Shown here piece by piece: positions 11,873-37,903 of a stretch of 64,000 nt of DNA. The position numbers and the translations under genes were made by a program. Position 1 is the stretch's first letter. Every line of letters starts with the position of its first letter. The notes beneath the pieces are model-generated. The model saw nothing but the letters and a program-made list of their open reading frames with translations. It searched no databases and was not told the DNA's origin. Origin of the DNA: an uncultured Actinomycetes bacterium (GTDB taxonomy: Bacteria; Actinomycetota; UBA4738; HRBIN12); NCBI GenBank assembly GCA_963821925.1, contig CAWGFO010000010.1, positions 403-64,402 of the forward strand. Reading direction: 5' to 3'.

Positions 11873-12047
11873 CGTGTCAGCACCCGGTACGGCGCCAGCC
11901 GTCGGCGACGGCTGGGATATCGACGACCCAGGACTGCCGCACGCAGGGACTCTTCACGTCGCCAGTCTCGTTCGCGCGTGACATGGGGCGCAAGTTGTTG
12001 CCCACAGTGTTGGCTAGCCATCGGCTACGCGTTAGATCACATCTGCT

Positions 12048-12824
12048 TCATGCCTTGGAGCGCAGGATGTCTTCGAGGCGCTTCGCCATCTGTGGACTCG
12101 CCCCTTCGTCCTCGTGCTTGAAGTAGCAGAAGACGTCGGCGCCGCCGGCGAGCGCTGTGCCGATCCGCTCCGCCCACGCCGCGAGCTCGTCGTCCGTGTA
12201 CTCGGTCTTGCGCAGACGGAAGTAGCCGGCGGGGTCCCACGAGATCTCCTCGGGCGTCGGGTCCTTCTCGTCGGTCTGGGCCACGCACCACGCGACGCCC
12301 TGGTCCCGCAGCAGGTCCCGCGCCTCGAGCCAGGAGGCGTGACGGAACTCCATCGCGAACCGCGGGTTCCCGTTCCCGGTCGGGGGGAGGTACCCGACGA
12401 AGCCCTCGATCAGCGCCCGGTCGTAGTGCAGGTTCGGCGGGCACTGGAAGAGCACGCACCCCAACCGGTCGCCCAGGGTCTTCGCGCGCTCCAGGAAGTC
12501 GCGGACGTCGTCGTCGCAATCCTTCAGCCGCCGGGAGTGCGTGATGCGCTGGTTCGCCTTCAGCGTGAAGACGAATCCGGGACGCGCGCGGTCGCGCCAG
12601 GTCGAGAGGGTCTTCTCCGTTGGGAACCGGCGGAACGTGTAGTTGATCTCCACCGACGACAGCTGCGACGAGTAGTAGTCGAGCATGTCGTCCTTCTTGA
12701 GGTCCTCCGGGTAGAAGACGCCGTGGCGCCACTCGTCGTAGGCGAATCCCGACGTCCCCAGGTAGAAGCTGCCGACCATGGCGTGCATCATCGCATGCGT
12801 GCCGTCGCTCGACGTCGCAGGCAT
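12048..12824 (-). CDS. DUF72-family protein (YecE-like).
   Basis: …FYLGTSGFAYDEWRHGVFYP… and …YYSSQLSSVEINYTFRRFP… match the DUF72 signature. Confidence 0.8.
   Translation of the reverse strand: MPATSSDGTHAMMHAMVGSFYLGTSGFAYDEWRHGVFYPEDLKKDDMLDYYSSQLSSVEINYTFRRFPTEKTLSTWRDRARPGFVFTLKANQRITHSRRLKDCDDDVRDFLERAKTLGDRLGCVLFQCPPNLHYDRALIEGFVGYLPPTGNGNPRFAMEFRHASWLEARDLLRDQGVAWCVAQTDEKDPTPEEISWDPAGYFRLRKTEYTDDELAAWAERIGTALAGGADVFCYFKHEDEGASPQMAKRLEDILRSKA
12776..12804. repeat. 29-bp direct repeat copy 1 (ccatggcgtgcatcatCgcatgcgtgccg).
   Basis: Matches 14519..14547 at 28 of 29 positions. It lies inside the 5' coding end of the DUF72 gene (minus strand). Confidence 0.85.
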
Positions 12825-12839
12825 CAGGGTCGCGGGCCG

Positions 12840-13904
12840 CTATGAGCCCGGGCTGCAAGCAGGGATGTCGCTCACGCGGGGCAGTCGCTGGATCCACATC
12901 TCTCCGTCGATGCGGCGCACGAGATAGACCTCGTCGTCGAACGTCAGTGGGTCGACCCACAACTGGAAGAGCCGGCTGTGGTAGCCGGTGAAGACGGCGC
13001 CCGGAGGGAGGACCGTGAGCGGTGTGTACGGCACCGCGCTCCGGTCGGCCCAGGAACCCTGCGGATCCGCGACGTACACGCGTTCGACCTCCGCGCCCGT
13101 CGGCTCCGTCCCGAGTGGGTCGATCAGCTGAAGGATCGTCGGCGGCCATCGCCGACAATCCGGCATCCAGAACGTGGAGAGCGTGGCGGGCGCCAGGGGC
13201 CGGCCGTCAGGGCCGTACCACGGAGTTGGCGGGACGATCGTGCCGCCGGGGCTCGTCGGGCCACCTCTATCGAGGATCCCCGGCGCTACCTCGACGGTTC
13301 CCGGGCCGCAGAAGGCGTCCGGATCCGCGTGGTCATGCGCGCCTCTCGGCGAGGGCGCTCCCAGCTCGTAGGGACGGACCTGGACTTCGCCGTCCGAAGT
13401 GACGCGGCTGGGCACGGGAAACATGCCGGAGGATGCGGGGCCGGTCATGTACTCGCCGTGATCGTCGAACTGGGCTCCGTGCTCCAGCTCCCTGAACCCA
13501 CCGAACGGTCGGCAGTACCGCAGTTTCTCCTCCACCCCGTACGGGGAATGGGGAGACACGGCCGAGAGGGCGTAGGGCTCTCCCCCTTGATCCGCGACGA
13601 CGAAGACCTCCGCCTCCGCGAGGTACACGACTCCCTCCGTCGAAAGGTCGGCGATCGACCCGGCATCGACCCACTCCCCGGCCACCGACGTCGCCGGCGG
13701 TGGCGCGATCGAGCCATCGGAGGCGGGACGACGCGAGGCGAAGGCCGCAACGATGACGGTGACGAAGACCGCAGCGATGGCGATCGCACCGACCTTGCGG
13801 CGACGCGCCACGCGACGCTGCCTGCGGATCTGTCGGTCGAGCGCGTCGGGCACGGCGGGCGCCTGGCGGCTCACCGTTTCGAAGAGTTCCTTCATGTCAG
13901 GCAT
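12840..13904 (-). CDS. Putative anti-sigma factor or membrane protein, with one TM segment after a short cytoplasmic N-terminal segment and a large extracytoplasmic domain.
   Basis: Immediately downstream of an ECF sigma gene with a 10-bp gap. …VGAIAIAAVFVTVIVAAFA… is a TM segment. There is no family-level match. Confidence 0.5.
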   Translation of the reverse strand: MPDMKELFETVSRQAPAVPDALDRQIRRQRRVARRRKVGAIAIAAVFVTVIVAAFASRRPASDGSIAPPPATSVAGEWVDAGSIADLSTEGVVYLAEAEVFVVADQGGEPYALSAVSPHSPYGVEEKLRYCRPFGGFRELEHGAQFDDHGEYMTGPASSGMFPVPSRVTSDGEVQVRPYELGAPSPRGAHDHADPDAFCGPGTVEVAPGILDRGGPTSPGGTIVPPTPWYGPDGRPLAPATLSTFWMPDCRRWPPTILQLIDPLGTEPTGAEVERVYVADPQGSWADRSAVPYTPLTVLPPGAVFTGYHSRLFQLWVDPLTFDDEVYLVRRIDGEMWIQRLPRVSDIPACSPGS

Positions 13905-13913
13905 GCCGACCCC

Positions 13914-14366
13914 TCACATCGTTCTCATCGCGGCCCGCCCCTGCGACGCGAGGACACGGACGGTCGTCGCACGGATGCCGAGGATCGAGCCGGCCTGCGC
14001 CGAGTCGTAGCCGATGATCTCGGTGAGCACGAGCGCGGCGCGCTGGCGCGCCGGGAGCGCCGCGAGCAGGCGACGGACGTCTTCGCGCAGCTCGATCTCG
14101 TCGAACGGATCCCTGGCGTGCACGGTCGGCAGCGCGCGGCGGGTGGCCGCCTTGGCGCGGCGCAGCCGCGTGCGGAAGCCGTTCAGGGCCACGCGGAACA
14201 GGTAGGCGGTCGGGTCGTCGATCCGGTCGATCCGGTCCCACCGTTCCCACAGTTTGACGAAGGCTTCCTGGGCGAGATCCTCGGCCTCGTCGGCGCTCCC
14301 GGTGATGAAGAACAAGGCGCGGTAGAGGAGGTCGTGCTGCTCGAGGAAGAACTCCTCGAAGCTCAT
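13914..14366 (-). CDS. ECF-type RNA polymerase sigma-70 factor.
   Basis: Region 2 (…LYRALFFITGSADEAEDLAQEAFVKLWERW…) and region 4 (…LTEIIGYDSAQAGSILGIRATTVRVLASQGRAAM…). The ORF extends to 14426, but MSFEEFF at 14366 is the more plausible start. Confidence 0.8.
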   Translation of the reverse strand: MSFEEFFLEQHDLLYRALFFITGSADEAEDLAQEAFVKLWERWDRIDRIDDPTAYLFRVALNGFRTRLRRAKAATRRALPTVHARDPFDEIELREDVRRLLAALPARQRAALVLTEIIGYDSAQAGSILGIRATTVRVLASQGRAAMRTM

Positions 14367-14518
14367 CGGCGCCGCTCGCGGGTCCCGTCTCCGGTCCGAC
14401 GCCACGCCTTGCCCTCCGATCACCATGACCCATGGACGCTACGGGGGGTGCGTTCGTTTAGGCCGCCGTCGGATCCGCACAGCTCAAGGGCCGCAGGCGG
14501 ACGCGTGCCTATTGCCCG

Positions 14519-14547
14519 CCATGGCGTGCATCATGGCATGCGTGCCG
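14519..14547. repeat. 29-bp direct repeat copy 2 (ccatggcgtgcatcatGgcatgcgtgccg).
   Basis: Matches 12776..12804. It supplies the start codon and first nine codons (MACIMACVP) of the hydrolase gene. Confidence 0.85.
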
Positions 14548-15210
14548 ACACCCGAGGAACGCCTCACGATCGACGTGCCCGACGCGGGCCTGGTCAGCGG
14601 CGCCTACGCGCGACCCTCCGGGGCCGACCGCACGATCGTGGTCGCGCACGGCGCCGGCGCCGGGATGGACCACCCGTTCATGGTGGGCTTCAGCCGGGCG
14701 ATGAACGAACTCGGCGTGGCCACGCTCCGGTTCAACTTCCCGTACATGGATGCGGGTCGCCGCAGCCCCGACCGCCAGCCGGTCGCGGTCGCGACGTGGC
14801 GTGCGGCGTTCGACGTCGCGGTCGCACGAGCGCCCGGGGGCGAGCCCGTCTGGGCGAGCGGCAAGTCGTTCGGCGGGCGGATGGCCTCCGTCGCGGTGGC
14901 CGAGGGGATGCCGGCCGCCGGGCTCGTGTTCCTCGGGTACCCGCTGCATCCTCCGGGCAAGCCGGAGCGCGTCCGAGACGAACACCTGTACGCGATCGAG
15001 ATCCCGATGCTGTTCCTGCAGGGCACGAAGGACCCGTTCGCCACCCCCGCGGTGCTGGCGCCGGTGATCGAGCGCCTGGGCGCTCGGGCCACGCTGCACG
15101 CGATCGATGGCGGCGGGCACTCGCTCGAGCGGTCCCGCAAGGACGACCCCCGCGAGACGGGCGCCGCGCTCGCGCCGATCGCCGCCGGCTTCATGCGGGA
15201 GGCGCGCTAG
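14521..15210 (+). CDS. Alpha/beta hydrolase (dienelactone-hydrolase-like small hydrolase family).
   Basis: …IVVAHGAGAGMDHPFM…ASGKSFGGRMAS…LQGTKDPFATP…IDGGGHSL matches an alpha/beta-hydrolase topology with a GxSxG-like nucleophile elbow. Confidence 0.7.
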   Translation: MACIMACVPTPEERLTIDVPDAGLVSGAYARPSGADRTIVVAHGAGAGMDHPFMVGFSRAMNELGVATLRFNFPYMDAGRRSPDRQPVAVATWRAAFDVAVARAPGGEPVWASGKSFGGRMASVAVAEGMPAAGLVFLGYPLHPPGKPERVRDEHLYAIEIPMLFLQGTKDPFATPAVLAPVIERLGARATLHAIDGGGHSLERSRKDDPRETGAALAPIAAGFMREAR

Positions 15211-15508
15211 ATGCCGCGGAAGAACCGGCGCAACCCCGAGTTCTTCACGCCGCCCGAGGCGCCCTCGACGCCGTCGAGGGGCGCCGACACGCCCATCTGG
15301 GCCCAGGCGCCCGGCTACGAGGTCCGCGGCGTGGGCGGCCAGAAGGAGTACCGGTGCCCGGGTTGCGACCACATGGTGCGCGCCGGGATCGCGCACCTCG
15401 TGGTGGTGCCCGACCGACGACGTCGACGCCCGCCGCCACTGGCACACCGAGTGCTGGAAGCGCGAGCTCCGCCGCCTCGGGCTCTACCGCGCCCCGACGG
15501 TCGAGTAG
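15211..15508 (+). CDS. Small basic zinc-ribbon protein (Cys-x2-Cys … His/Cys), conserved hypothetical. It has one frame change near 15417.
   Basis: MPRKNRRNPEFF…YRCPGCDHMVRAGIAHLVVVP in the frame of 15211, followed by TDDVDARRHWHTECWKRELRRLGLYRAPTVE* in the +1 frame. Dropping one base in cccgaCcgacgac would restore a single ORF. Confidence 0.5.
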
Positions 15509-37189: not shown

Positions 37190-37903
37190 CTACGGCGTCA
37201 GGTCGGCGCAGAGGACCTCGATCGGCACGGACACGTTGGTGCCGGGGGACGGGAACAGCGTGAACGTGAACTGCAGATCCCAGGGACGCGCGAGCGGACT
37301 CGTGACCCCCGAGCGCGTGTGCATCAGCTGTCCCTGGAGGTAGAAGGTCTCCGAACCCATCGGACCGATCGCGCGGTCGTTCTTGTCGCACGAGAGCACG
37401 ACCGTCGTGGACGTCGGTGAGGTGCCCGAGGGGCTGTCATAGGTGAGGAACCCTGTGCGCGAGTAGAAGCGAAGGACCCCAGGAGCCCCCGGATCGCCCT
37501 TCGGCCCACGCTCGCCCTGGATCCCCTGGTCGCCCTTCGGCCCACGCTCGCCTTGGAGCCCTTGCTCGCCCCCCGGTCCACGGTCGCCCTGCAGTCCCTG
37601 CTCACCCTGCGGCCCGTGCTCACCCTGCGGCCCGCGCTCACCCTGCGGTCCCTGCTCCCCCTGCGGCCCTTGGGGACCCTGAGGCCCGACCGGCCCGGTC
37701 TCGTTCCACTGGACCAGCACGCTTCCCCCGGTGCAGGTCGGGGTCTCGTTCACCGACAGGGTGCCGAGGATCACCTTCCCGTTCTTCGCGCAGGCGGCGA
37801 AGAGGTCGCCGTCGGTGCCCGCCCAGGCGAACCCCCCGGCGACGAACGAGGCCGTGATGGCTGATGAGGCGAGGCCGATCGCGATGGCCCGGCGGACTGT
37901 CAT
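37190..37903 (-). CDS. Secreted collagen-like triple-helix repeat protein.
   Basis: Signal peptide [28 protein letters not shown]. About 25 uninterrupted Gly-X-Y triplets ([73 protein letters not shown]). Non-repetitive C-terminal domain of about 95 aa. Confidence 0.75.
37478..37699. repeat. Coding (GXY)n collagen-triplet repeat region, with 9-bp periodicity at the nucleotide level.
   Basis: Repeated ctgcggcccgtgctcaccctgcggcccgcgctcaccctgcggtccctgctc-type units on the plus strand. Confidence 0.8.

Follow-up and report, generated by a model that had tools for sequence, protein, structure and literature searches.

The stretch of DNA considered here comprises 64,000 nucleotides of contig CAWGFO010000010.1 (assembly GCA_963821925.1, positions 403 to 64,402), from an uncultured Actinomycetes bacterium, and is called the window in what follows. 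It carries a DUF72 gene and a hydrolase gene separated by a pair of genes for an extracytoplasmic function (ECF) sigma factor and its putative anti-sigma partner, and this pair is bracketed by two nearly identical direct repeats. The repeats are probably copies of a short two-way promoter that includes the start codons of both neighbours and that was duplicated when the sigma/anti-sigma pair was inserted.

The repeat is a 29-mer, CCATGGCGTGCATCAT[C/G]GCATGCGTGCCG on the plus strand, found at 12776-12804 next to DUF72 (CCATGGCGTGCATCATCGCATGCGTGCCG) and at 14519-14547 next to the hydrolase (CCATGGCGTGCATCATGGCATGCGTGCCG). The two copies are identical at 28/29 positions, the mismatch being position 12792, the first base of the minus-strand hexamer described below. 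The first-pass annotation, made from the sequence alone, had reported near-perfect 29-bp repeats that enclose exactly the sigma gene, its partner open reading frame (ORF) and their upstream region; the same positions, identity and gene content were recovered. With up to three mismatches allowed, the window contains these two matches only, and none was obtained in 100 dinucleotide shuffles. The 19-nucleotide (nt) core of the repeat gives the same two window matches and no more. When TGCSATGATGCACGCCRTG was scanned against 185,579 species genomes, 68 single matches were obtained. Seventeen of these are the orthologous hydrolase/DUF72 locus in metagenome-assembled genomes (MAGs) of Actinomycetota, with one copy per locus, and the remaining ones are singles scattered over unrelated phyla. 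With two copies in the window and single matches in the genome scan, a generic dispersed repeat is ruled out. This was one of two adverse outcomes foreseen in the first-pass annotation; the other, relatives with the same arrangement and no repeat, was not seen either, the repeat being kept in all occupied relatives. A structured RNA was likewise ruled out, as folding of either strand of either copy gave z scores of -0.47 to +0.90 against shuffles; no Rfam match at E<=1 was found within 12000-15300. The 29-mer also contains an imperfect 12-nt tandem, ATGGCGTGCATC / ATGGCATGCGTG, corresponding to MACI/MACV (window 14521-14544 and 12778-12801), which apparently results from the pseudo-palindromic core GC[A/G]TGC-CATGAT-GCACGC.

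Related loci reveal what the site looks like when it is empty. They are designated below by L numbers (loci from metagenomes or MAGs), and homologous proteins by P numbers. In about 90 of about 100 related loci, DUF72 and the Abhydrolase_11 hydrolase stand back to back with a single copy of the sequence. A metagenome scan provided 80 further loci with a DUF72 identity of 67-95%, in nearly all of which the hydrolase abuts DUF72 according to tblastn. Almost all of the 17 named Actinomycetota MAG loci have the same divergent adjacency (DUF72 identity of 67-96% when combined with the metagenome loci). In the context of P0002 (95% DUF72 identity) the hydrolase and DUF72 calls are divergent with a 14-nt overlap, and the adjacency is also found in L003 (82%) and L002 (79%). 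The closest empty site, L005 (94% DUF72 identity), has one copy (...CCTCGGGCGTCGGCACGCATGCCATGATGCACGCCATGGCGGGCAGCTTC...). The empty site that the first-pass annotation had proposed to look for, with DUF72 next to the hydrolase and one repeat copy between them, therefore exists in many relatives, including those at 94-95% DUF72 identity.

Comparison with L005 also gives the extent of the duplication. In BLAST alignments, window 12812-12050 corresponds to L005 4226-4988 and window 15293-14513 to L005 3489-4268; the 43 bp at L005 4226-4268 align to both window flanks, 12812-12770 and 14555-14513. In the DUF72-side copy (12770-12812) the outer 6 and 8 nt have diverged in the window (4/6 and 5/8) and are better kept in L084 and L001, and the hydrolase-side copy (14513-14555) includes a relic DUF72 start, ATGGCGGGCA, on the minus strand. 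L084, a 797-kb contig with 94.5% nucleotide identity to the window over 3.3 kb, has copies whose central 35 bp are identical at 34/35 positions (CGGCACGCATGC[C/G]ATGATGCACGCCATGGCGGGCA). Its hydrolase-side copy ends in ATGGCGGGCA, the first 10 nt of DUF72 in L001, L004, and L005, and its DUF72-side copy opens with the GTGCCG of the hydrolase followed by a diverged TCGCCCGA. In the window, the duplicated DUF72 start heads a putative relic leaderless mini-ORF of 12 codons at 14484-14522 on the minus strand (MAGNRHASACGP and a stop), whose first 10 nt are again the DUF72 5' end of L001, L004, and L005. Since the 43 bp of L005 match both flanks and L084 retains relic gene starts, the repeats are a target duplication of about 43 bp around an insert of about 1.7 kb (~12813-14512). 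The origin of the repeat, unclear in the first-pass annotation, can now be assigned to this duplication. The occupied arrangement with the sigma module is present in four independent assemblies (the window, L084 from ERZ25039597, L001 from ERZ27256842, and L155 from JGI 3300033550) and is therefore not an assembly artefact.

The same site has received other cargo. A gene of the APH-family phosphotransferases occupies it in L004 (1951-2914), L027 (806-1793), L068 (708-1692), L111 (6267-7241), and L116, with a copy of the predicted promoter on each side. The gene begins at the hydrolase-side start codon of that promoter; it is frameshifted in L068, and L067 has a 78-bp remnant of it (1636-1714). 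In L004 it is flanked by the repeat GCACGC[A/G]TGCCATGATGCACG, with a duplication of about 21-23 bp. The divergence of this gene between L004 and L027 (70% at the amino acid level) is similar to that of the flanking genes, so the cassette is old. A different ECF sigma cluster of 2.5 kb is found in the opposite orientation in L121 (300-3000), from the MAG uncultured Actinomycetes bacterium MFD09964.bin.2.63. It comprises an ECF sigma factor 51% identical to that of the window, a TolB-like PD40 propeller membrane protein and a 256-amino-acid putative lipoprotein, and is flanked by an exact 29-bp direct repeat, CGGGTGTCGGCACGCGTGCCATGATGCAC. In addition, L056 (244-625) and L082 (1383-1764) have a 380-bp insert between hydrolase and DUF72 with an ORF of 108 amino acids, which has a hydrophobic N-terminus and no family match. 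A CATGATG core precedes each gene in these two loci, and the promoter is probably duplicated around the small ORF too. In all cargo cases the predicted -10 core lies 5-8 nt before the start of each gene. The length of the duplication varies, from about 43 bp in the sigma event to 29 bp in L121 and about 21-23 bp in the APH event of L004.

Exchange between alleles has also left traces at the site. L111 5597-7962 is a three-part mosaic with respect to L004 and L027. For the hydrolase, identity is 84% with the L027 type and 58% with the window type; DUF72 matches the window type at 95-96%, and the APH gene is intermediate. The shifts in identity fall at the two promoter copies. Ordinary homologous recombination is expected to resolve at the promoter core because the core is the longest uninterrupted identity between the diverged alleles. 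An origin of the sigma module in the window as a replacement of an APH cassette was ruled out, as the match of the insert ends to the APH 5' and 3' ends was equalled by 200-475 of 500 shuffles. L121 has a weak positional match to the APH 3' end, which 13 of 500 shuffles reached, and such a replacement is possible there.

What the duplicated sequence does is suggested by the gene starts around it. The DUF72 gene (YecE-like, PF01904; 12048-12779, minus strand) would begin at the ATG 12779-12777 and encode 243 amino acids (MVGSFYLGTSG...). The hydrolase gene (14542-15210, plus strand) would begin at the GTG 14542-14544 and encode 222 amino acids (V/M-PTPEERL...); gene callers use the ATG at 14521 for it. 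Across about 100 loci compared, the conserved starts lie at the inner edges of the repeat, the DUF72 ATG being M16 of the long ORF and the hydrolase GTG being the V of MACIMACV, and the in-frame ATGs further upstream of DUF72 are probably not used. The view of the first-pass annotation that each repeat supplies 5' codons of a flanking gene gives way to that of a duplicated, predicted promoter with start codons: the repeat spans from one conserved start codon to the other, and these loci indicate that it is probably not mainly coding. The peptides THAMMHAM and MACIMAC probably arise incidentally from the CATGATG core. Among the thousands of relatives returned by a DUF72 protein search, many have N-termini of the form MMHAM..., encoded by repeat bases, and P0022 is an over-long DUF72 call that runs antisense through a hydrolase.

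The upstream regions of all loci were aligned with the conserved FYLGTSG motif of DUF72 as the anchor. A conserved block, TGC-CATGAT-GCA (with CATCAT in some loci), is followed by 6-8 nt and then by the DUF72 ATG or GTG. In distant relatives the hexamer position reads TAGAAT, AAGAAT, or CAGAAT. On the opposite strand, CATCAT or its equivalents stand 6-8 nt before the hydrolase start. The pattern xAxxxT-N(6-8)-[AG]TG occurs in frame in 99 of these related 101 DUF72 loci (1 and 6 in the other two frames) and in 86 of 91 related hydrolase loci (2 and 16). A2 and T6 of the hexamer are invariant while its other positions vary (CATGAT, CATCAT, TAGAAT, AAGAAT, CAGAAT). In L079 and in loci of the L014 type, the ATG within the core is out of frame with the gene and therefore cannot be the start. 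No Shine-Dalgarno-like sequence precedes the DUF72 or the hydrolase start.

The predicted -10 hexamers overlap on opposite strands. In the DUF72-side copy (12786-12792) they read CATCAT on the plus strand (12786-12791) and GATGAT on the minus strand (12792-12787); in the hydrolase-side copy (14529-14535) they read CATCAT on the plus strand (14529-14534) and CATGAT on the minus strand (14535-14530). In the latter copy, as in most relatives, the hexamers overlap with A2 and T6 of one strand pairing with T6 and A2 of the other. A start codon lies 7 nt from the -10 core on each side; the proposed starts at 14522 and 14542 are 20 bp apart. The core is framed by palindromic arms (GCGTGC-N6-GCACGC), which extend up to 13 bp in L014-type relatives, where both start codons lie inside the arms. 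We infer from this comparison that the ~20 nt between the starts form a shared symmetric bidirectional -10 promoter that gives two leaderless mRNAs. The geometry agrees with that of the symmetric bidirectional promoters described by Warman et al. (bioRxiv 10.1101/2020.01.31.928960), whose opposite -10 elements pair at positions 2 and 6 and whose transcription start sites (TSSs) in actinobacteria are separated by 18-19 bp. Leaderless mRNAs from -10-only promoters, of which the pattern seen here is the signature, are common in Actinobacteria. In M. tuberculosis, TANNNT was found 7-12 bp upstream of TSSs, a quarter of the genes are leaderless, and closely juxtaposed divergent promoters were called common (Cortes et al. 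2013, PMC3898074).

The following sequence of events is proposed. In the ancestor, hydrolase and DUF72 would have stood head to head, sharing GTG(hydrolase)<-7 nt<-[CATCAT/CATGAT]->7 nt->ATG(DUF72), a region that would act as a symmetric bidirectional -10 promoter with two leaderless mRNAs. A 1.7-kb segment consisting of the ECF sigma gene, the membrane partner, and their own upstream region would then have entered this promoter in the ancestor of the window, L084, and L001/L155 lineages, and the insertion would have duplicated about 43 bp of the target. Because of this duplication, both flanking genes would keep a full promoter and start codon, copy 1 serving DUF72 and copy 2 serving the hydrolase. 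The outward half of copy 2 would point into the sigma operon, leaving the 12-codon relic ORF. The simplest mechanism may be a single event, either a staggered break whose ends are filled in around the captured DNA or replication that switches template and resumes upstream of where it left. Some relatives have a Ku gene close to this locus; the window has none. Selection could have shaped the outcome as well, if only insertions that spare both promoters survive.

The direction of change is suggested by the distribution of the module. At this site it is found in four assemblies only, which belong to one clade (bootstrap 98-100%), and about 90 other loci are without it; as the sigma-occupied state is limited to one small clade, the insertion is likely to be the derived state overall. 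Homologues of the partner protein are found at the same site in L084 (P0121, 92%) and L155 (P0122, 90%), and in unrelated contexts in L085 (69%) and L086 (56%). The L085 module has 76% nucleotide identity to window 14439-12879. The presence of a homologous module in unrelated contexts indicates that it exists elsewhere and was added here.

Several points weigh against this account. A target duplication of 43 bp, to our knowledge, greatly exceeds what known transposons produce, and neither the insert nor the neighbouring genes encode an enzyme able to make it. Monophyly of the occupied lineages was recovered in 25% of bootstraps of the DUF72 tree, compared with 58% for L001+L004+L005, and this non-monophyly means that later precise loss or spread by recombination must be allowed. 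The promoter and leaderless starts are predicted from comparative sequence, and CATGAT deviates from the canonical TANNNT hexamer. A scan of 12600-14700 for consensus sigma-70 promoters and terminators returned nothing, although such a scan needs a -35 element and is uninformative for -10-only promoters. The palindromic arms could be a regulator binding site instead of, or besides, a promoter. Finally, the 101 DUF72 and 91 hydrolase loci share descent and their counts overstate independence; even so, the frame controls and the turnover of the hexamer argue that the pattern is real.

The tree raises the alternative that the sigma module was ancestral to the window, L084, L001, L004, and L005, and that precise deletion by recombination between the repeat copies, or allelic replacement, later gave rise to the empty (L005, P0002) and APH (L004) states. 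This order of events is compatible with an earlier insertion and adds repeat-mediated loss, an idea of deletion already put forward in the first-pass annotation and a plausible one; we consider it unlikely overall, though deserving of attention. Besides the bootstrap values, the third-position divergence, 0.255 between window and L001 and 0.184 between window and L005, speaks for it. The remnant in L067 demonstrates that cargo is lost at this site, and direct repeats of 29-43 bp are long enough for RecA-dependent or slippage deletion. The tree, however, is built on 719 sites with conflicting patterns (12 sites unite L001+L004, 11 unite L004+L005), which fit recombination over a clean history, and it need not be the history of the insert because the locus is demonstrably mosaic. 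A clean excision, moreover, would leave no scar.

A more general possibility, which appears improbable at present, is that the promoter core does not merely receive insertions passively but acts as a cassette platform for leaderless genes. Some function of the host would open it again and again to bring in, swap, or remove modules, and would regenerate a promoter copy on each side. Candidates for this function are an unrecognised recombinase and a break at the two opposed open complexes that is then repaired by fill-in and end-joining. If true, a platform of this kind would explain the varied cargo at one 20-bp site, the cargo orientations, which in every case put a gene behind a promoter copy, and the breakpoints at the copies.

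Still less probable is that the repeat is an att-, dif-, or attC-like site and that a site-specific recombinase encoded elsewhere moves the sigma pair, the APH gene, and the L121 cluster in and out as cassettes. The geometry is dif-like, with arms GCRTGC / GCACGC around CATGAT and a total of about 28-29 bp. At least three, probably four, different cargoes occur at one site with copies on both sides, and the L111 breakpoints fall at the two copies. In Acinetobacter, small modules without their own recombinase are flanked by 28-bp Xer sites (PMC6449649). On the other hand, the 43-bp duplication runs into the coding sequence of both neighbours, which crossover at a fixed site would not duplicate, and its boundaries differ among events (~21-23, 29, and 43 bp). 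This entry into both coding sequences and this variable extent favour target copying over crossover in a fixed att- or dif-like site. No recombinase gene is present in the insert or the neighbouring genes, and the position of the motif relative to the start codons, together with its TAGAAT-type replacement in distant relatives, fits a promoter. Breakpoints at the most conserved 20-30 nt are also what ordinary homologous recombination between diverged alleles would produce. That the copies are instead independent operators of one transcription factor co-regulating DUF72 and hydrolase, alike by function and not by duplication, would suit their palindromic character and their strong conservation, which holds for both copies in every occupied lineage and in front of the two genes wherever these are separated, but is effectively refuted as an origin and hardly deserves credence, since the identity extends to relics (the first 10 nt of DUF72 by the hydrolase copy, the hydrolase start and 8 nt by the DUF72 copy), the single copy of empty-site relatives aligns to both, and separate sites could not credibly have converged to 34/35 identity; the copies may still act as operators besides their predicted role as promoters.

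The inserted segment itself (12813-14512, minus strand), with the ECF sigma gene, the membrane partner, and their own upstream region, has a G+C content of 69.8%, equal to that of the window. No terminal inverted repeats were found, the best inverted match between its ends being 11/13 aligned positions with two gaps. The insert encodes the sigma gene and the partner ORF only, and no transposase or recombinase was found in it or among the neighbouring genes. The sigma gene (13914-14426, minus strand) contains Sigma70_r2 (PF04542) and r4_2 (PF08281) and scores 66.9 bits against TIGR02937 (cut-off 42.9); the nearest subfamily is SigE-fam_strep, below its cut-off. The product is an ECF sigma factor of the expected size of ~170-200 amino acids with only regions 2 and 4. 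The partner gene (12840-13904, minus strand) encodes 354 amino acids with one hydrophobic helix (~residues 38-57) and a highly conserved C-terminal, extracytoplasmic domain, which has a nearly invariant block, PYALSAVSPHSP..YCRPFGGFRE.EHGAQFDDHGEYMTGPASSGM. It has no Pfam or NCBIfam match, and no ASD, zf-HC2, or RskA-type domain was recognised. The family is rare, with 5 homologues among 5.8 billion proteins, and no plasmid match was found for the protein. An AlphaFold2 model from 6 sequences reached a predicted local distance difference test (pLDDT) score of 38 and was unusable. Gene order, the short cytoplasmic N-terminus, and the single hydrophobic helix suggest that the partner is an anti-sigma factor. 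The window holds no paralogue of the module or of the genes flanking it in L085. A block GGCCTAAAC-N17-CGTCC at 14434-14464 on the minus strand, 7 nt before the sigma ATG at 14426, is common to the window, L084, and L085, is absent from L086, and is a candidate for an ECF-type promoter belonging to the module. Over the 60 nt that separate the partner gene from DUF72 no terminator is predicted, and DUF72 could therefore also be co-transcribed with the module.

Two other features of the region may be mentioned. Between DUF72 and a hydrolase-cyclase gene, L084 (9861-13880) has two extra genes, for proteins of 383 amino acids and of 428 amino acids (AAA_16), which the window does not have at the corresponding place (11873-12047); they constitute a second variable spot adjoining the hydrolase/DUF72 locus. 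Farther away, at about 37400-37700 on the minus strand of the window, an ORF with collagen-like G-X-Y repeats lies beneath 36-nt tandem repeats (37487-37648).

An insertion between head-to-head leaderless genes should destroy the expression signals of at least one of them, because no free intergenic DNA is available. This locus points to a route by which new genes can enter such a compact spot: the control unit of 29-43 bp is duplicated whole, both neighbours would keep a promoter and a start codon, and the newcomer gene would sit behind the spare promoter copy. Once in place, the copies are the best-conserved short stretches of the region; subsequent recombination breakpoints fall at them, and subsequent loss could proceed through them. 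Cargo at this spot differs between very close relatives, which carry none, a phosphotransferase, or one of the two ECF sigma modules, and this provides a concrete and testable example of the gain of regulatory modules. In addition, the likely start codons of two widely annotated gene families can be corrected for this lineage. The predicted promoter, as a short natural bidirectional leaderless one, is a candidate tool for high-GC Actinomycetota.

The locus resembles several known insertion systems in part. As in the target-site duplications of transposons and casposons, the target is single-copy at the empty site and a direct repeat stands on both sides of the insert, and as in spacer integration into clustered regularly interspaced short palindromic repeats (CRISPR), the duplicated unit is partly palindromic and about 30 bp long. 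Known elements make a fixed target duplication of 2-15 bp. At this locus, in contrast, the duplication measures 21-43 bp and varies between events; the insert encodes neither a transposase nor a casposase nor Cas1, lacks terminal inverted repeats, and carries an ordinary regulatory gene pair. The locus does not qualify as a transposon insertion, having neither an element nor a fixed duplication length. Integron cassettes enter at a recurrent insertion point beside a resident promoter with variable cargo, and here too small modules without mobility genes of their own are found at a recurrent insertion point next to a resident, if predicted, promoter. Chromosomal hotspots and islets gain and lose genes between conserved core genes, in an intergenic region or at a tRNA gene. 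Conserved flanks (hydrolase and DUF72), variable content in close relatives, and mosaic alleles are shared with them; the difference is that the target here is a single predicted promoter of about 20 bp, a second copy of which accompanies every cargo.

The dif/pdif (Xer) modules are small, lack mobility genes, lie between sites of about 28 bp, and differ in cargo among strains at the same place (PMC6449649), as the present modules do. The 6-bp inverted arms and 6-bp centre are compatible with Xer/dif; the duplication exceeds such a site and varies, and no recombinase is encoded at the locus, one encoded elsewhere being possible. The repeat sequence is unlike either dif or attC, its copies are direct and are target copies that include flanking coding bases, the boundaries vary, and no integrase is present at the locus. 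With the symmetric promoters of Warman et al., the site shares overlapping opposite-strand -10 elements with positions 2 and 6 paired, divergent starts about 18-20 bp apart, and predicted mRNAs on both sides. It differs in that both products are apparently leaderless and that the control region and both start codons fit within 29 bp; its hexamers are CATGAT/CATCAT and not TATAAT-like, and the promoter is predicted from sequence. Actinobacterial leaderless genes (PMC3898074) have the same kind of A2/T6 -10-like element 6-8 nt before an ATG or GTG, no Shine-Dalgarno sequence, and accepted GTG starts; the organism considered here belongs to an uncultured Actinomycetota lineage, and its leaderless starts are predicted from a sequence proxy. 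The locus may therefore best be described as a combination of three known phenomena, namely a target-site duplication of unusual and variable length without a recognisable mobile element, a putative symmetric promoter of the Warman type, and a hotspot of gene gain.

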